Below are positions 25,199-31,693 of a stretch of 64,000 bases of DNA, piece after piece. Origin of the DNA: Spirochaetales bacterium (lineage in GTDB: Bacteria; Spirochaetota; Spirochaetia; Treponematales; Treponemataceae); contig QKAR01000114.1 of the NCBI GenBank assembly GCA_003246335.1, positions 920-64,919 on the forward strand, in the 5' to 3' direction. Below the pieces are notes generated by a model. It saw nothing but the letters and a program-made list of their open reading frames with translations. It did no database searches and was not told the origin of the DNA. Every line of letters begins with the position of its first letter. The first letter of the stretch is position 1. Both the position numbers and the translations under genes were made by a program.

Positions 25199-28006
25199 TC
25201 ATTTCGACGTCATGTTGATCACGTCGGACCAATCGTCGGCAACGCCGGACTTCACGAGCTCGGCGAGTCGATCCCGGAAAATTTTCGAAGGTTCGTCCGA
25301 ATGGTCGATCTCCACGCAATCCTCGAAATGCGCGAGCGATTCCGCGAATCGTTTCTCGCGGTACGCGTCGATGCCGAGGTCGAAACTCTCGACGAGGGCG
25401 ACGGCCTTCTCGGTCGCCTCGGCGCGCACGGCCATGACGTTATAGAGCTGGACGGGCGTGTTGATGCCGACGACGCGGACGCGGTCGAGCTTGCGGCCAA
25501 GGAACATGCCCTCAGTCGCGTCCCAGGTCGACTCAGACGCGAGTATCCAGGTAGCATACTGTTTGTTGACGCCCTCAAGGCGCGCCGCGAGGTTCACGTC
25601 ATTGCCCATAATCGTGTAATTCATCTTATTGTCGGTTCCCATGTTCCCGACGACCATCGCTCCGGTATTGACGCCGATGCGCGTGTGTATCTCCATTGGC
25701 ACGTCGCCGGCCGCGCGGAACTCCTCGTTCAGCCGGTCTTCGGCCTCTTTCATGCGCACGGCCGCGAGGCAGGCTTTTTTCGCGTGATCCGGCAAATCGA
25801 TCGGCGCGCCGAAAAACGACACGATCGCGTCGCCGATGTACTTATCGATAGTGCCGCGCTGCTCAAGCACGATATCGCTCATCACCGTCAGGTATTTATT
25901 GAGAATCTGAACCAAATGTTCCGGCGTGACTTTTTCGGACAGCGACGAAAAGCTCTTAATGTCGGTAAACAGCGCGGTGATGCGTTTTTCCTGGCCGCCG
26001 AGCTTCAAGGCTTCCGGGTGCGAGACGATTTGGTCCACGACGTCGGCCGAAAGGTACGTCGAGAACGCCTTGCGCAGGAAACTCTTTTCCTGCTCCGAGA
26101 AAACGAATTTCAGGATCGATATCATCACGAACGTCATGACGACGGAGAAGAGCGGAACGAAGAGCGAAACATACACGCGGAAGGCGGCGAACGCCCCGAG
26201 CACGCCGACGAAGGCGAATACCGACGCGGCGAGGCCGAACGCGATGCGTCCCGCAAGGGAGGTAATCTTGCGATTCGCGATCGCGACGATCCAGCAAAGG
26301 ACGAGAGCGAGGGCCCAGGACGCCCACGACGGCAAGGGGTAAATGAACTGCCGCGTCATGATCGTGTTGTAAATATTCGCGTGGGTACCGACGTTCGGGT
26401 AACTCTTGCGAAAAGGATTAACGCCGAGATCGGTACTTCCCGTCGCGGTATTACCGAGGATGCAGAACGAGCCGGCGCCAGCGTTTTCGAGAAAGGCGAT
26501 TTGCTCCCCGTAAGCCGTGAATTCCTCGCGGTATACGTCGAAGTTCTTCTTCACGCTCTCCTTGAGCTCCGCGTACTTCGCGTCTCCGGTGGCCGCGCCG
26601 ACGCGGTCAAACGTATCGTAAATTTCGGTGTCGTACCCGCCGTCGAGGAATTGGCCGTAGTTCGAGAAAAACTCCTTTTTAGCCGCGAAATACCCGTCAT
26701 AGTCGTCGCGCGTTCCGTCGAGCAAGCCGGTTTTCCAGGCGTCCAAATCCTTCCGAGAGGCGAGAAGCCACTGCACGGCGTCATGATAGGAAAGGTATCC
26801 CGAGGCGGTCTTTATGCCGAGAGCGTCAATCGCCGAAAGATTATCCACGAGTTTTTCCTCAAGGGCGTCCGCGCGGATGAAGGCGGTGACTGAAACGTGC
26901 CGAAAGCTCGAGTTTTCGGGATTCGACGAATCGCTGAACATTTTTTTCAGCCAGTTAATGAGAAACCGGCCATGCTCGTCGAGCGGAATTTTCAAATCTG
27001 CCCGCTTGTCGGAGGAGGGATTCTCCGGATCAAGCGCGTTCACAAGCGTGATGTGGTTACCCGAGCGCACGATTTTTTCCGGCTGAAGGATGTCGATGAT
27101 CGGCGCGAACACGAGCTGGGCGACGTATTTCCCGTTATATTCCGCGAGAAGCGGGATGCGCCTGCGGACGCCGTCGGGGTCGATAACGACGTTTGGGAAG
27201 CCCGCGCCGCGAACTTTGCTCAAAAGGGGCAGGATCGCCGGCGCTATTCCCGGCTCGGTATCGGCATCCCCTTCTTGCCGGGTCAGGAGGTTTTCCGCCG
27301 GTATGAGCCGATGCGGGTCGTCCACGTTCGAAAGCATGATATGCTCATACGCGAAATCCTCGGCGGGCTTCGACTCATCGGTCGTGTTTATGCGCTGCGA
27401 ATTGATCGTTAGGTACGCGTTGCCGAAAAAATGGATGGCTTGGGCGAAATAGGCGTCGTTGTCGCGAAAAATATTAGCCGTGATCGAGTCGGAAAGCGAA
27501 GCCATGTCGGAGGAAATGTAGCCGCCGAGTTCGCCGCCGACTTCACCGACATACGAGAGCGGGATATTCTTCGACTCAACCGCGTCGGTGAAATCTTTCA
27601 CGTATTGCAACACCTCGTCCCGAACGCCCGAAAATTGCGCCGGAAACTCGTTTTTTACGTAGGCGCGGTTGACGCCGGTTTGGCCGGGATTCAGGTACTC
27701 AATATCGAAAACCGCGTATTTGGCGCCGGTTTCCCGCATACGGATCAGCACGTCGGCAATAACGTCGCGGCTCCAAGGCCACGCGCCGACTTCCTCGATG
27801 GCGGAATCGTCGATGTTAACCATTAATACGTCATGGCGCTCCGTTGGGGCCGGCTTTAAGGCCAAAAGCCAGTTATAGAGGCGAAACTCGACGCCTCGGC
27901 CCGCATCGCTCATCGAGAGCGCGACGAATAACGCTAAAACTACAGCGGCAACGCAGTATTCCAGGCGTTTTCGGAAAAAGTCCGCCAGATTTTTCGTTTT
28001 TTTCAT
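25199..28006 (-). CDS. CHASE2-domain class III adenylate cyclase (TM-CHASE2-3TM-cyclase-TPR-like tail)
   Basis: NIDDSAIEEVGAWPWSR and DPDGVRRR (CHASE2); three TMs; LFTDIKSF, DKYIGD (Lys indicates ATP specificity), HTRIGVNTG, NYTIMGNDVNLAARLEG. Start ATG 28006 after GGGGAG. Confidence 0.95.
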   Translation of the reverse strand: MKKTKNLADFFRKRLEYCVAAVVLALFVALSMSDAGRGVEFRLYNWLLALKPAPTERHDVLMVNIDDSAIEEVGAWPWSRDVIADVLIRMRETGAKYAVFDIEYLNPGQTGVNRAYVKNEFPAQFSGVRDEVLQYVKDFTDAVESKNIPLSYVGEVGGELGGYISSDMASLSDSITANIFRDNDAYFAQAIHFFGNAYLTINSQRINTTDESKPAEDFAYEHIMLSNVDDPHRLIPAENLLTRQEGDADTEPGIAPAILPLLSKVRGAGFPNVVIDPDGVRRRIPLLAEYNGKYVAQLVFAPIIDILQPEKIVRSGNHITLVNALDPENPSSDKRADLKIPLDEHGRFLINWLKKMFSDSSNPENSSFRHVSVTAFIRADALEEKLVDNLSAIDALGIKTASGYLSYHDAVQWLLASRKDLDAWKTGLLDGTRDDYDGYFAAKKEFFSNYGQFLDGGYDTEIYDTFDRVGAATGDAKYAELKESVKKNFDVYREEFTAYGEQIAFLENAGAGSFCILGNTATGSTDLGVNPFRKSYPNVGTHANIYNTIMTRQFIYPLPSWASWALALVLCWIVAIANRKITSLAGRIAFGLAASVFAFVGVLGAFAAFRVYVSLFVPLFSVVMTFVMISILKFVFSEQEKSFLRKAFSTYLSADVVDQIVSHPEALKLGGQEKRITALFTDIKSFSSLSEKVTPEHLVQILNKYLTVMSDIVLEQRGTIDKYIGDAIVSFFGAPIDLPDHAKKACLAAVRMKEAEDRLNEEFRAAGDVPMEIHTRIGVNTGAMVVGNMGTDNKMNYTIMGNDVNLAARLEGVNKQYATWILASESTWDATEGMFLGRKLDRVRVVGINTPVQLYNVMAVRAEATEKAVALVESFDLGIDAYREKRFAESLAHFEDCVEIDHSDEPSKIFRDRLAELVKSGVADDWSDVINMTSK

Positions 28007-28124
28007 CCTTTTTCGCTCCCCCAAAAACTATACTTAACTATAGGATACTATACACGGAAAGTGAACGATAGCAATGGATTCATTTTCTTTTTGTGGTATA
28101 CTCAGCTAAATAAGGAGAGCGTCG

Positions 28125-29213
28125 ATGGATCAGATAAAAAGTATTTGTACGTCGGTGTTTGCGCTCGCGCTCCTCAGCGGCGTCGCAGGCGAGACCATCA
28201 ACTGGCGCATGAATCCAGGACAGCAATTCGAGGCGAAAACGACGATACAAGAGTCGATTCGCGACTTGCGAACCGTCACGGTAAAGCCAGAAACGACGGC
28301 GAGCATGACGATAGAACAGGATGTTGCCGCGTCTCGAAAGAGCACGCTTGAAAACCTCGAGGGAATCCCCAGTTTCCCCGACCGCGCGATAAGCGTGGGC
28401 GACACGTGGAATGAGGCCGCGACGGCAACGTACGACCTGAAGAAATTCGGCATCGATGAGCCATTGAAAATATCGGTTGACGTCCGATTCAAACTCCTCG
28501 GGACGACGCTCGTCAACGATCTTCCATATTACCGGATTTCCGCGGAATGGTTCCCGTTCCGAATACTCGACGCGAAAACCGCTAAACGAAGCGGCATAGC
28601 CCGCATTTCCGGCCATTCAAGCATGGATATTCTCTGGGATAATCGTTCCGGAGGCCCCAAAAAAATCGATTTGAGCGAAGAGACTCAATTCCGATTTTCC
28701 GAGAATTCCCAAATAATCCTGCAAAGGAGAACGGTGCAGGATTTTAAGACGGTCGCCGAAATCCTTCGGGAAAAGGCGATCAAGCAAATCTCCGAGCAGA
28801 TCAAGGCGCAAGCGGTCGAGCACGTCGAAGTCAAGCAATCGGACGAAGGCATCGTCCTTTCGGTCGAAAACATCCAATTCGACGCGGAATCGGCGACGCT
28901 CAGCTCCACCGAAAAGGCGAAAATCGACCGAATCGGCAAACTGCTCGCGCCCTTCGCGAACCGTAAGATCAGCGTAGTCGGCCATGCTGCCTCGACGCCG
29001 GACTCGACGGAGGAGGAACTCGTGAGGCTATCGGCCGAGCGGGCGCAAGCGGTCGCGAATTACCTCGCGGAGAAAAACTTCAAGCCGAGCGACATGATCG
29101 TCGCGAGCGGCATGGGCGGCTCAAAGCCGCTCGCCTCGAACGACACCGCCGAGGGGCGAAGCAAAAACCGCCGAGTTGAAATCGTCATTCTTGACGAGGA
29201 GGCGCAACAATGA
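28125..29213 (+). CDS. Exported OmpA-C domain protein, Tpn50-like N-terminal domain
   Basis: Signal peptide, PSFPDRAISVGDTW, NIQFDAESATL, VVGHA, LSAERAQAV..YL, GMGGSKPLASN, NRRVEI. Confidence 0.9.
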   Translation: MDQIKSICTSVFALALLSGVAGETINWRMNPGQQFEAKTTIQESIRDLRTVTVKPETTASMTIEQDVAASRKSTLENLEGIPSFPDRAISVGDTWNEAATATYDLKKFGIDEPLKISVDVRFKLLGTTLVNDLPYYRISAEWFPFRILDAKTAKRSGIARISGHSSMDILWDNRSGGPKKIDLSEETQFRFSENSQIILQRRTVQDFKTVAEILREKAIKQISEQIKAQAVEHVEVKQSDEGIVLSVENIQFDAESATLSSTEKAKIDRIGKLLAPFANRKISVVGHAASTPDSTEEELVRLSAERAQAVANYLAEKNFKPSDMIVASGMGGSKPLASNDTAEGRSKNRRVEIVILDEEAQQ

Positions 29214-29725
29214 AAAAACCGATACTCGCCATTCTCGCCGCGATCGCGTTCCTGCCCGTCTACGGGCAGGAAGCCGCGGTCGTCTCTGACATCCTTTCGC
29301 GGCCGGTGGCGACCGTCATGGACATGTCCTACCTCGTCGCCAGCGCGAGCGGCGTCGATTGCACGCCGTTCGAGGCTTACGCCTTCTGCGACCAGTTCGG
29401 CGTATTTCCGCTCACGCGCCGGCCCGACGCGCCGGTGACCGTTCGGGACGCTTCATACTTTTTTATGTCGGCGTACGGATTAAAGGGCGGCATTATGTGG
29501 AACGCGCTCAAAAACCCCCGCTACGCGTGGAAGGAGCTCAAGGCGAACGGCTTTTGGAAACAAGGAACCGACCCGGGCGCGACGCTTTCGGGAAGAGACC
29601 TCGTGCGCGCAGTCGGTAAATTTTACGAGACGTGGCCGGACGCGAAGCTCCGCGTGCCTACGATGATTCAAGCGTCAGATCAAAACCGGAAAGCCTTGCT
29701 TGCCGGAGAGGAGAGCGCACAATGA
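29210..29725 (+). CDS. Exported small protein with SLH-like repeats
   Basis: Signal peptide; PDAPVTVRDASYFFMSAY and DPGATLSGRDLVRAV resemble the SLH 'P-x-x-x-I-T-R-x-E' helix motif. ATGA overlap with the ompA-like gene. Confidence 0.65.
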   Translation: MKKPILAILAAIAFLPVYGQEAAVVSDILSRPVATVMDMSYLVASASGVDCTPFEAYAFCDQFGVFPLTRRPDAPVTVRDASYFFMSAYGLKGGIMWNALKNPRYAWKELKANGFWKQGTDPGATLSGRDLVRAVGKFYETWPDAKLRVPTMIQASDQNRKALLAGEESAQ

Positions 29726-30912
29726 AACAATGCATAAAACCGCTCGCCATCGCGATGCTTTCAATACCGCTCGCCGGAGGGCTTTTCGCCTTGGACACCG
29801 GCTTGGAACTCAGCAACGCGGTCGGCGATAAAAACACCGGCGAAGCCGATTGGTACACCGACCATAAATTGACCGGATGGCTTCGCCTGCCGCTGGGGAC
29901 GGGAACCGAAAACGCGCTTTCGGTGGAAGGCAGCCTCTACGCGGCCAAGCCCGCCAACGAGACTGACCTTAACTTTTTCGCCGATCTCGACTTGTGCCGC
30001 TTAAGTCTCGTTCCGGTCGCAAAGCCCGGCTTCCGCGTCGCGCTCGACGCCGGACGAATCCCCGTAGCCGACGCCTCGGGCCTCATTCTGAACCAAACCG
30101 TCGACGGCGCGGAGGCTCACGCCTCCTTCAAGGCGGCCAATATCGATTTCCTCGCCGGCTACACGGGCCTGCAAAACGCCCAAAAAGACGGAGCACTGAT
30201 GACGACGGACGATTTCGCCGATTCCGACGCGACTGATATTTATCCGCTCGGGTCAAGCAGAATTCTCGGTAAGGCGACCGCGCAATTCCCGCAGCTCATT
30301 AAGACGAATGACCTCATCGTCCAGGCGGTCGGGCAATACGATATGCGCCGCTATATCGACAGCGACCCGGATCAAGTCGTCGATACCTCGTATTTCTCGG
30401 TTATCTTAAACGGGCCAGTGGCTCAGACCCTCTTTTATTCCCTTACGGGCACGTTCCAGTCGGGAATTTTGGAGGAAAACGATAAGAAATACTCCGAGAA
30501 TTCCGCGCTTGCCTCGGCTCGCCTTGATTGGTATCCGGTTAAGAAAAACCACGGTTTCCTTCAAGTCGTGTATACCCCGCCCGAGGGCGATTTCTTCTCG
30601 GAATATTTGCCGATTACGTTTCAGGCGGCCGGGGACCTCTATGGCTTAGGTTATGGGGACCTGACCCGCATTTCCGCCGGGTGGTCCGCCGCCCCGCTTT
30701 CGATACTCAACGTTGACATAGCGGGCAAGGCGTTCGTATATTCGGAAAAACCCGATGGCGTCGACAGCGCTTACCAAGGCACGGAAGTTTCCGGGGGCGC
30801 GACGGTAAAGGCGACGAGCGACTTACGGCTACGGCTCAACGGCGCCGCCTTTTGGCCGCAAGACGAGGATATGCAATATCAAATATCGCTCAAAGCGATA
30901 TTCGACCTATAA
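29722..30912 (+). CDS. Predicted outer-membrane beta-barrel protein
   Basis: Signal peptide, many amphipathic alternating segments, and an alternating C-terminal strand YQISLKAIFDL. Start ATG 29722 (ATGA overlap, GAGGAG RBS). Confidence 0.7.
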   Translation: MKQCIKPLAIAMLSIPLAGGLFALDTGLELSNAVGDKNTGEADWYTDHKLTGWLRLPLGTGTENALSVEGSLYAAKPANETDLNFFADLDLCRLSLVPVAKPGFRVALDAGRIPVADASGLILNQTVDGAEAHASFKAANIDFLAGYTGLQNAQKDGALMTTDDFADSDATDIYPLGSSRILGKATAQFPQLIKTNDLIVQAVGQYDMRRYIDSDPDQVVDTSYFSVILNGPVAQTLFYSLTGTFQSGILEENDKKYSENSALASARLDWYPVKKNHGFLQVVYTPPEGDFFSEYLPITFQAAGDLYGLGYGDLTRISAGWSAAPLSILNVDIAGKAFVYSEKPDGVDSAYQGTEVSGGATVKATSDLRLRLNGAAFWPQDEDMQYQISLKAIFDL

Positions 30913-30934
30913 TTGGAGTGATGGGAGGTTTGCT

Positions 30935-31642
30935 ATGAATAGAACTATCGCGGCGATTTTCGCCTTCGCGCTCGTGGGAGCGGCGCCCCTGATCGCCCTT
31001 GACGGAACGATCGTGACCGTTACCGGAAAAGTGGAGTCCCAGGACGTTAATGGCGCATGGAAGACGCTCAAGGCGGGCGACGTCATCGCCTCTGGATCGA
31101 TGATTTCGACGGGCTTTAAGTCCGAGGCGACCGTTAAGCTCGGCGCGTCCATCCTCACCGTAAAGCCGCTGACGCGCATGACGCTGACGCAACTCGAGGA
31201 AAAGCAGGATACCGTCAACACCGAGCTCTATCTCGAGGTTGGAACCGTCAAGGCCGAGGTAAATTCCCTTAACAATAAGAAAAACGGATTTACCGTAAAA
31301 AGCCCGGCCGCGACCGCGTCCGTTCGCGGTACCGTGTTTCAAATCGGTGAATATCTCGTAGTGTTCGAGGGAAACGTCGCGTTGACTAACCCAATAGGCC
31401 AGCAGCGCAACGGAACCGCCGGGCAACAGCTCAATATCGTCGGAAATACCATCGCGAGCGCGGCCGTCGCCATGCAAAACGACTCGGGCGTCATTCAGCT
31501 GACGACGCTCCCGTCGACGGAGGTGTCTTCCCCGATTCTCGCGACGCTCGCGGCGAACGCGCCCGCAAAACCCGACGTCACCGCGGCGTCCGCGGCAGCG
31601 TCCGCGAGCACCGTCGCGACGCTCGCGCTCACGCTCGAGTAA
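30935..31642 (+). CDS. Secreted FecR-domain protein
   Basis: Signal peptide, GKVE, LKAGDVI..GSMISTG..SEATVKL, LEVGTV, FTVKSPAATASVRGT.F, VFEGNV. Confidence 0.88.
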   Translation: MNRTIAAIFAFALVGAAPLIALDGTIVTVTGKVESQDVNGAWKTLKAGDVIASGSMISTGFKSEATVKLGASILTVKPLTRMTLTQLEEKQDTVNTELYLEVGTVKAEVNSLNNKKNGFTVKSPAATASVRGTVFQIGEYLVVFEGNVALTNPIGQQRNGTAGQQLNIVGNTIASAAVAMQNDSGVIQLTTLPSTEVSSPILATLAANAPAKPDVTAASAAASASTVATLALTLE

Positions 31643-31660
31643 AGTCGCGGATCACAGCAT

Positions 31661-31693
31661 GAAAAAACCCCGGGTTTCGCCCGGGTTTTTTTT
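31661..31693. terminator. Bidirectional terminator between the FecR gene and parC
   Basis: A6-CCCGGG-tttcg-CCCGGG-T8 between convergent genes. Confidence 0.85.

Follow-up and report, generated by a model that had tools for sequence, protein, structure and literature searches.

The closest described systems come from Sinorhizobium meliloti, Burkholderia and Campylobacterota. In S. meliloti, the CHASE2 cyclases CyaK, CyaD1 and CyaD2 need the outer-membrane barrel protein NsrA, the signal is plant uL2, and the cAMP is read by a Crp-like regulator (Garnerone 2018; Sorroche 2020, PMC7529298). NsrA is a single protein of ~1200 residues with the barrel at roughly residues 600–1200, and a FecR-domain gene, SMc02177, adjoins cyaD1. 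The 'BiofilmReg' operon of Burkholderia combines a LysM-FecR protein with a CHASE2 histidine kinase (PMC5192318), and a cluster in Campylobacterota contains a CHASE2 cyclase, a phosphodiesterase, a FecR-domain protein of the outer membrane and a TPR protein (PMC9239204). In addition, the alphaproteobacterial plasmids pAMI5 of Paracoccus aminophilus and p1 of Shinella sp., which were checked here, carry operons for an outer-membrane protein with TPRs (and a barrel), a FecR-domain protein whose C-terminal barrel is TbpB- or fHbp-like, and a CHASE2 cyclase. Publications already report the CHASE2–FecR link from Burkholderia, Campylobacterota and S. meliloti, and barrel-dependent CHASE2 cyclases (NsrA/CyaK) are likewise on record, a precedent that the initial annotation of this DNA had cited correctly. 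In the literature, no published description of such a module in spirochaetes was found.

In the window, i.e. the whole stretch of 64,000 nucleotides that was analysed, a CHASE2 cyclase gene is divergent from an operon encoding OmpA-like, SLH-like, barrel and FecR-like proteins (Table 1). This locus represents one instance of a module that is conserved across Spirochaetota and whose four-gene core consists of the SLH-like, barrel and FecR-like proteins (the triad) and the CHASE2 cyclase. The gene set, the domains, the ATGA overlaps, the 22-nt gap, the 118-bp divergence, the signal peptides and the terminator are all as initially annotated. Because homologues align from residue 7, the ATG at 28006 (935 residues) rather than the upstream TTG at 28024 (941 residues) is the likely start of the cyclase, and the divergent gap is therefore 118 bp. 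A promoter scan of this gap finds two extended −10-like boxes (TGnTATACT type) back to back, one per direction, and a ribosome-binding site, AAGGAGAG, lies in it 5' of the operon. The terminator, with the stem CCCGGG-TTTCG-CCCGGG, T8 on the plus strand and a T-run on the minus strand, ends the operon and is also used by a convergent parC-like gene. The topology analysis gives all four operon products one N-terminal hydrophobic segment apiece, which is read as a signal peptide. The lack of any ECF sigma factor or TonB-dependent receptor, claimed initially for the window, extends to its entire contig (C152), where neither Sigma70_r2 nor a TonB-dependent receptor barrel was found; the sole TonB-dependent receptor of the genome is on contig C137.

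Table 1. Features of the cyclase–operon locus (positions are those of the window)
Feature	Position	Strand	Remarks
CHASE2 receptor adenylate cyclase (predicted)	25199..28006	-	ORF as called 25199-28024(-)
Divergent control region, 118 bp	28007..28124	none	
OmpA-like gene (secreted, OmpA-C)	28125..29213	+	PF00691
'SLH-like' protein, 171 aa	29210..29725	+	ATGA overlap with OmpA-like gene
Barrel ORF, 396 aa	29722..30912	+	ATGA overlap with SLH-like gene
FecR-like gene, 235 aa	30935..31642	+	22-nt gap after barrel gene
Bidirectional intrinsic terminator	31669..31693		CCCGGGTTTCGCCCGGG then T8 on + strand

The cyclase is made up of an N-terminal TM segment, a periplasmic CHASE2 domain (Pfam PF05226, 110.6 bits, E = 1.2e-31, cut-off 26.3), three TM segments, a class IIIb catalytic domain (Pfam Guanylate_cyc, 74.7 bits, E = 9e-21) and a C-terminal TPR-like tail, and its hydrophobic segments follow the same 1+3 pattern, with CHASE2 between the first TM and the three C-terminal ones. 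The CHASE2 match comes in two pieces, profile positions 3–188 being spread over residues 29–390 and interrupted by an insertion of ~170–200 residues, which is a mark of the ~900–1000-residue cyclase type that is linked to the triad. The best PDB sequence match is CyaB of Pseudomonas aeruginosa (3R5G, E = 9.3e-38), and in alignment with it the metal-binding aspartates (D688 and D732), the adenine-specifying K728 and T804 and the transition-state residues N811 and R815 are all in place. A Lys/Thr pair is typical of ATP specificity in class III cyclases, whereas Glu and Gly occupy the specificity positions of the guanylate cyclase Cya2. Judged by its Pfam domains, 1+3 TM topology and complete catalytic residues, the protein is an intact CHASE2 adenylate cyclase of class IIIb, in agreement with the earlier reading of it as an intact CHASE2-3TM-class III enzyme. 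The other long CHASE2 cyclase of the genome (contig C85) has a FecR-like secreted neighbour too (hhalign, 97.8%).

The 396-residue protein had been predicted to be a β-barrel, and its confident AlphaFold2 model (pLDDT 90.1, pTM 0.81) indeed folds into one with 18 strands. Its best structural match in the PDB is AlgE (Foldseek TM 0.71, E = 1.2e-15), followed by OprD/Occ and OmpM1. No Pfam family, PF13372 (Alginate_exp), TPR and DUF560 included, matches it at E ≤ 0.1; distant members of the barrel family do carry PF13372 (L153, 46.1 bits against a cut-off of 25.2, and P0089). On the strength of the model, this core member of the module is an 18-stranded outer-membrane barrel of the AlgE/Alginate_exp-like kind.

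In its AlphaFold2 model (pLDDT 83.5), the 171-residue secreted protein, also a core member, consists of helices only and has three SLH-like repeats. Foldseek's top 13 PDB matches to the model are all SLH domains (Sap, SpaA; TM 0.37–0.51, E 0.02–0.3, probability 0.89–1.0). At the level of sequence, Pfam gives nothing at E ≤ 0.1, SLH profiles included, and a profile of 29 homologues has no PDB match at E ≤ 10. The 'SLH-like' label of the initial annotation is thus a tentative one for the predicted fold, at a TM of ~0.5, and does not extend to sequence. The protein is found in nearly all related loci, and in one genome (G055) an OmpA-C domain is fused to it, which ties the SLH-like protein to peptidoglycan.

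The FecR-like protein, the third envelope member of the core, has a FecR domain (PF04773, residues 57–148, 34.8 bits, E = 2.3e-8, cut-off 24) and a single hydrophobic segment, the predicted signal peptide; Pfam and the topology analysis find neither an anti-sigma domain nor a TM. Its tail is a low-complexity Ala/Ser/Thr/Pro stretch that, by its sequence pattern, ends in a conserved amphipathic β-strand. NCBIfam gives only weak matches, all below cut-off, to Lsa33, LipL45 and the LapA retention module, and unlike the Paracoccus and Shinella proteins it has no Pfam match to TbpB_B_D or FHBP_C.

The OmpA-like protein carries an OmpA-C domain (PF00691, residues 252–349, 68.3 bits, E = 7.5e-19, cut-off 27.2). 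Its N-terminal half has no assigned fold. The initial annotation had made this protein part of the system; it is a lineage-specific addition and does not belong to the module's core. Its gene is missing in three of 20 same-genus loci (L045, L046, L052) and truncated in another (L034), and outside the genus clade of the window it occurs in the module only in Brucepastera.

How does this ensemble compare with the systems described above? As in the NsrA system, an inner-membrane CHASE2 class III cyclase is combined with an outer-membrane barrel partner, the pairing being seen here as linkage. Unlike NsrA, the barrel of the window is a stand-alone AlgE-like protein without an N-terminal extension, and the FecR-like and SLH-like proteins are separate. 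Judging from size and architecture, it may be regarded as an analogue of NsrA and not as a demonstrated homologue. With the Burkholderia and Campylobacterota clusters, the window shares a secreted FecR-domain protein beside a CHASE2 sensor, an accompanying peptidoglycan-binding element (LysM in that comparison, OmpA-C and the SLH-like protein here) and the lack of an ECF sigma factor. However, the output in Burkholderia is a kinase and not an adenylate cyclase, neither cluster has an AlgE-like barrel or an SLH-like protein, and the phosphodiesterase and TPR genes of Campylobacterota have no counterpart in the window. The pAMI5 and p1 clusters likewise bring together an outer-membrane protein, a secreted FecR-domain protein and a CHASE2 cyclase, but the window barrel has no TPRs and is AlgE-like with 18 strands instead of Slam/DUF560, the FecR-like protein (235 residues) ends in a single strand and not in an eight-stranded barrel, and the SLH-like protein is a fourth partner. 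Slam/type XI secretion (TPRs, a 14-strand DUF560 barrel and FecR-headed cargo ending in a TbpB-like eight-stranded barrel) was considered for the window itself and rejected on the strand number, the lack of TPR and DUF560 and the shortness of the FecR-like protein. In FecA-FecR-FecI, too, a PF04773 domain is the presumed relay from an outer-membrane barrel to an inner-membrane signalling protein; the window lacks both a TonB-dependent transducer and an ECF sigma factor, its FecR-like protein has neither an anti-sigma domain nor a TM, and the output is cAMP and not sigma-factor release.

Linkage, taken as the cyclase lying within 3 kb of the triad, was counted only at loci flanked by 4 kb or more on either side. 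It was found at all 14 loci of the window's genus, at 8 of 15 in other genera of the order and at 12 of 16 in other families and classes, as well as at 43 of 50 FecR-seeded public loci. The module occurs in six gene orders, fully co-directional operons among them, and in many other families all four genes are co-directional with the cyclase, apparently in one operon. The flanking genes (yigZ-like, parC, parE) remain in place across the genus, and outside it they are found in only 0–1 of 20 loci; since the linkage outlasts this synteny, it is more than chance. The barrel profile matches 108 of 301 genomes of Spirochaetota, and these include all 46 in which the periplasmic domain of the cyclase has a strong match. 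The four genes are also inherited together: the second module of one genome (G015, locus L059) is closest in 4/4 genes to module L061, carried by a genome of a different family (51/47/39/64% identity), compared with 37/24/24/37% to the first module of its own genome, and thus the module moves as a unit. Adjacency is not obligatory, because genus g31 (genomes of 2.1–2.9 Mb) has retained both cyclase and triad hundreds of kb from each other, and they are also apart in Treponema putidum (L103). In several genomes the triad persists without an adjacent cyclase, and in Brucepastera parasyntrophica an intact operon stands beside a cyclase that reads as frameshifted. The proposed co-conservation of the operon with CHASE2 cyclases holds for the SLH-like, barrel and FecR-like genes (phylum-wide, in six orders and with congruent paralogues) and fails for the OmpA gene.

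Given the observed gene content, domains, folds, catalytic residues, linkage and joint inheritance of the four genes, this CHASE2 sensor family probably has the envelope proteins as its input. Our main reading, to which we assign a probability of about 0.6, is that the four-gene core, with the genus-specific OmpA-C protein, is a module that relays a change at the outer membrane or surface to cAMP. We infer the physical contacts and the direction and nature of the signal as follows. The barrel and the SLH-like protein would form an outer-membrane unit associated with peptidoglycan, to which the OmpA-C peptidoglycan-binding protein would be an addition of the window's genus. The FecR-domain protein would dock onto this unit and, in the periplasm, also touch the enlarged CHASE2 domain. 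Changes in the outer membrane or at the cell surface, be it a ligand or the envelope state, would alter cAMP synthesis, and the cAMP would be read by the many cNMP-binding proteins of the genome, in which 13 matches to cNMP-binding domains were found.

The direction of the relationship could be the reverse, with the operon as a target of the cyclase: cAMP and a Crp-like regulator would act at the shared divergent promoter region, and the linkage would reflect co-regulation. Such an output or feedback role has a parallel in S. meliloti, where smc02177 is a Clr/cAMP target reported to be dispensable for signal perception, and it suits the common 118-bp control region and the abundance of cNMP-binding proteins. 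We nevertheless consider it unlikely. No CRP-like palindrome is conserved across the intergenic regions of 19 same-genus loci, in which only the −10-like boxes recur, the co-directional operons with the cyclase elsewhere look more like components of a single machine than like a regulator with its target, and FecR domains are known periplasmic signal relays.

Similarly unlikely is a structural or transport role, in which the SLH-like, barrel and OmpA-C proteins would be a split OmpM-like tether/porin or an AlgE-like polymer export pore with the FecR-like protein as cargo or cap, while the cyclase would monitor or tune the structure or be linked for unrelated reasons. The best barrel folds, i.e. 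the alginate exporter AlgE, the Occ porins and the attachment porin OmpM1, point this way, as do the SLH-like fold of the barrel's partner, the OmpA-C domain here and its fusion to the SLH-like protein in G055, and the triads without an adjacent cyclase. The window barrel resembles AlgE in its 18-strand fold, and distant relatives pass the PF13372 cut-off; yet no alginate or other polymer-synthesis genes accompany it, and ~140 related loci show no conserved polysaccharide synthase, glycosyltransferase or inner-membrane exporter. The SLH-like partner is reminiscent of the SLH-barrel fusion of OmpM porins, although here it is encoded on its own and alike at fold level only. The presence of the barrel wherever a genome strongly matches the periplasmic domain of the cyclase and the congruence of the four genes in paralogous modules also speak against this role. 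It is most improbable that the FecR-like protein is an exported adhesin of the Lsa33/LipL45 kind, displayed via the barrel and without a signalling role: the Leptospira adhesin Lsa33 (E = 8.8e-14) and LipL45 are its best NCBIfam matches, but at 51 bits against a cut-off of 420 and 23 against 350 they are limited to the common FecR domain, and the adhesin role would leave unexplained why pairing with CHASE2 cyclases is conserved.

Within the relay from the outer membrane to cAMP, a more specific and doubtful, though conceivable, arrangement is that the FecR-like protein and the AlgE-like barrel make up a threaded two-piece surface receptor feeding the CHASE2 cyclase. The FecR head, with its weak likeness to the LapA retention module, would be a periplasmic stopper in touch with the CHASE2 domain, the low-complexity tail and its terminal β-strand would run through or dock into the 18-strand pore, and the SLH-like protein, together with OmpA-C in the window's genus, would fix the receptor to peptidoglycan. 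Pulling on the exposed tail, its cleavage, the binding of a ligand to it, or an altered distance from the outer membrane to the wall would then be converted to cAMP.

The locus is a new variant of the little-studied CHASE2–FecR arrangement, one that includes an AlgE-like barrel and an SLH-like protein. The threaded receptor, if real, would amount to an Rcs-like envelope sensor assembled from unrelated components, and CHASE2 domains would thereby have a general input mechanism mediated by proteins.

The gene calls bear out the layout first proposed for this locus, a CHASE2 cyclase facing a four-gene operon that has two ATGA overlaps and one 22-nt gap at its junctions and is closed by a terminator. 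The alignment of cyclase homologues begins at residue 7, so the start codon is likely the ATG at 28006 and the divergent region therefore measures 118 bp, as annotated. Each of the four operon proteins has one N-terminal hydrophobic segment, read as a signal peptide. A search of the entire contig for Sigma70_r2 and TonB-dependent receptor domains found neither, in agreement with the initial annotation.

Features of the cyclase locus and its operon
Feature	Position	Strand	Remarks
Cyclase ORF, 941 aa	25199-28024	minus	
OmpA-like ORF	28125-29213	plus	first gene of the operon
SLH-like ORF, 171 aa	29210-29725	plus	
Barrel ORF, 396 aa	29722-30912	plus	ATG chosen over upstream GTG at 29632
FecR-like ORF	30935-31642	plus	
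Intrinsic terminator	31669-31693		strong, bidirectional; CCCGGG-TTTCG-CCCGGG + T8

The co-conservation of the envelope genes with CHASE2 cyclases, the point on which the initial proposal chiefly depended, was found across the phylum. In all 20 loci of the genus the cyclase faces the (OmpA)–SLH-like–barrel–FecR operon, with the OmpA gene absent from three loci and truncated in one. Elsewhere in the order, in other genera and families, 20/20 loci contain the triad of SLH-like, barrel and FecR-like genes, and about half of them have a divergent cyclase next to it. Clustering of the four genes recurs in 20 loci drawn from about 15 further families and classes, in six different orders, and several of these loci are fully co-directional (e.g. 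FecR-SLH-barrel-cyclase and SLH-FecR-barrel-cyclase). A public-genome scan seeded with a trimmed alignment of the FecR-like protein returned 450 relatives. Every one of the best 79 loci comes from a spirochaete record or a mis-binned contig, including Brucepastera parasyntrophica, Treponema parvum, T. putidum and many uncultured Treponemataceae, and most of the 79 show the same four-gene arrangement in an HMM scan. With the count restricted to loci that have 4 kb or more on each side, the triad has the cyclase no more than 3 kb away in 14/14 loci of the genus, 8/15 from other genera of the order, 43/50 FecR-seeded public loci and 12/16 from other families and classes. The genes flanking the module in the window (yigZ-like, metallophosphoesterase, parC and parE) served as a control; they keep their synteny in 12-18 of the 20 loci of the genus and occur in 0-1 of the 20 from the order and in none of the 20 from the phylum.

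The barrel profile matches 108 of the 301 genomes of the phylum (54/126 genera), and all 46 genomes with a strong match to the cyclase periplasmic domain (E ≤ 1e-15) are among these 108. A related-locus scan with the single barrel protein gave zero relatives; a word-filtered protein search with the barrel profile matched spirochaete-like metagenome proteins only. Some genomes carry two modules. In G015 the second one, L059, is closest in all four genes to a module from a genome of another family (L061) and not to the first module of G015; the set of four is therefore duplicated or transferred together. Their mirror-tree correlation (r about 0.9) was discounted as evidence, since common descent predicts it; what is informative is that paralogous modules are congruent. 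One module, L175 (G331:C1:764000-774000), may be decaying as a whole: its cyclase has a frameshift at about residue 244, and the barrel gene next to it contains an in-frame TAA stop.

There are exceptions to the linkage. In one genus, represented by nine complete or nearly complete genomes of 2.1-2.9 Mb (G075, G102, G125, G145, G224, G262, G272, G311 and G340), both the cyclase and the triad are kept, separated by hundreds of kb where the genome is complete; the module is unlinked here without loss. The periplasmic domain of these cyclases is 49-51% identical to that of the window's cyclase. T. putidum has the triad without a nearby cyclase. In Brucepastera parasyntrophica RmG11 (L086:465-3411, NZ_CP084606.1) all four operon genes are intact and the cyclase reads in three frames, which implies two frameshifts near residues 645-745; it may be either a pseudogene or the product of sequencing errors. 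A counterpart in T. pallidum was considered and dropped: G162, the one genome of ~1.1 Mb in the family, contains neither the barrel nor the long CHASE2 cyclase.

The two middle operon proteins (171 and 396 residues) match no Pfam or NCBIfam family. The AlphaFold2 model of the larger one, built with 29 homologues, has 18 strands (pLDDT 90.1, pTM 0.81) and is most similar in the PDB to the alginate exporter AlgE (TM 0.71, E 1.2e-15), followed by OprD/Occ porins and the attachment porin OmpM1, which upholds the earlier assignment of this protein as a beta-barrel. Two distant members of the barrel family carry an Alginate_exp domain: L153 (46.1 bits against a cut-off of 25.2) and P0089. The most conserved barrel motifs, residues 147-152 (YTGLLN) and ~295-306 (F-L-P-I-T...G; both within 30160-30640 of the window), sit in two long loops, which strand parity places outside the cell or folded inside the lumen. 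Their location in loops rather than strands suggests a putative specific binding or constriction site.

The cyclase contains CHASE2 (Pfam, 1.2e-31) and Guanylate_cyc (9e-21) domains, with one N-terminal and three central transmembrane segments. Its catalytic domain is closest to Pseudomonas aeruginosa CyaB (3R5G, 9.3e-38) and keeps both metal-binding aspartates (D688, D732), the transition-state Asn and Arg (N811, R815) and the ATP-specifying Lys/Thr pair (K728, T804), unlike the guanylate cyclase Cya2, whose specificity positions are Glu and Gly. With these residues the protein is expected to be active as an adenylate cyclase. An insertion of about 170-200 residues interrupts its CHASE2 match. 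Cyclases of this long type (~900-1000 aa) share their genomes with a different type of ~760 aa, in which the CHASE2 domain is contiguous. The ~3-Mb genome is rich in cAMP signalling for its size: tblastn with the cyclase gave nine matches on eight contigs, of which at least seven cover the catalytic domain, and there are 13 matches to cNMP-binding domains. One further long-type CHASE2 cyclase, a 928-aa ORF, lies outside the window in the C85:26459-29857 region. Its convergent neighbour, a secreted protein of 144 aa, is a homologue of the FecR-like protein's N-terminal half (hhalign 97.8%, E 1.2e-12) with a weak resemblance to the LapA retention module, and no barrel or SLH-like gene was found beside this cyclase. 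This neighbourhood suggests that the primary partner of CHASE2 is the FecR-like protein.

The FecR-like protein carries a FecR domain (Pfam, 2.3e-8, residues 57-148) without an anti-sigma part, and its NCBIfam matches to Lsa33, LipL45 and the LapA retention module are all far under the cut-offs. The FecR-like proteins of one distant family (f40) were rejected as Lsa33 orthologues (29 bits against a cut-off of 420). Here (31400-31642) and in homologues from loci L034-L073 and L153-L155, the protein has a low-complexity Ala/Ser/Thr/Pro tail ending in a conserved amphipathic beta-strand (e.g. TLALTLE, GSVTVTIQ, VSIYLVWP), which could serve as a signal for docking to the barrel or threading into it. 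Two other spirochaete families have a ~530-aa lipoprotein of no known family between the FecR-like gene and the cyclase (L169:10358-11944, L170:9877-11472), which appears to be a lineage-specific accessory.

The 171-aa protein is modelled as all-helical (pLDDT 83.5), and SLH domains account for all 13 of its best fold matches in the PDB. The initial label of SLH-like is thus reasonable but weak, because the matches reach a TM of only about 0.5 (E 0.02-0.3) and neither a profile search of PDB sequences nor Pfam gave a match. The OmpA-like protein has an OmpA-C domain (Pfam, 7.5e-19, residues 252-349). In G055 (L070:2647-3561) an SLH-like domain is naturally fused to OmpA-C (PF00691, 69 bits) directly upstream of the barrel and FecR-like genes, a fusion that works as a putative Rosetta-stone link between the two peptidoglycan-related parts.

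We consider a trans-envelope module to be the best-supported reading of the locus (probability about 0.6). The outer part would consist of the AlgE-like barrel and the peptidoglycan-associated SLH-like protein, joined in this genus by OmpA-C; the secreted FecR-like protein would relay to the enlarged CHASE2 domain, and the resulting cAMP would be read by the cNMP-binding proteins of the genome. Co-conservation and the barrel fold bear out two parts of the initial proposal; the route from barrel through FecR and CHASE2 to cAMP, with its contacts and direction, is what we infer. The operon might instead be a target of cAMP, as is the FecR-domain neighbour of cyaD1 in Sinorhizobium meliloti, a cAMP/Clr target reported to be dispensable for signal perception. 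We regard this as unlikely. No CRP-type palindrome or site in the divergent region is conserved across the module's intergenic regions, where two divergent -10-like boxes are the sole recurring elements; the three ACTATA repeats of the window are thus probably promoter elements rather than an operator. It is also rather improbable that the proteins build a structural or transport complex, and a function as an adhesin seems very improbable.

Relatives of the trans-envelope module are known. The precedent invoked initially is published: the S. meliloti CHASE2 cyclases depend on the outer-membrane barrel protein NsrA (PMC7529298). Published neighbourhoods also include CHASE2-FecR in S. meliloti, a LysM-FecR protein with a CHASE2 kinase in Burkholderia (PMC5192318), and a cluster of CHASE2 cyclase, phosphodiesterase, FecR outer-membrane protein and TPR protein in Campylobacterota (PMC9239204). 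In annotated public plasmids of Paracoccus and Shinella, one operon encodes a TPR protein, a CHASE2 cyclase and a FecR-domain protein whose C-terminus is TbpB/fHbp-like. The spirochaete version differs from these CHASE2-FecR systems in its stand-alone AlgE-like barrel, its SLH-like fourth partner and its short FecR-like protein ending in a single conserved strand. We found no paper describing the module in spirochaetes. It is a new variation on a kind of system that is known but little studied; the observation is confirmed and its interpretation partly supported.

CHASE2 is widespread and serves as a sensor domain in cyclases, kinases and c-di-GMP enzymes. We know of no direct ligand for it, and S. 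meliloti is, to our knowledge, the one studied case, in which an outer-membrane barrel protein is needed. The cAMP signalling of spirochaetes is poorly understood. The value of the finding is tempered by the general theme being already partly published, and the module, neither unique to the window nor conceptually unprecedented, is a clean candidate input set for an orphan sensor domain. As a phylum-wide four-gene module it would supply defined candidate partners of CHASE2 (barrel, FecR-like and SLH-like proteins), with which signal reception becomes testable by reconstitution, and it would add an envelope-to-cAMP pathway to spirochaete biology.
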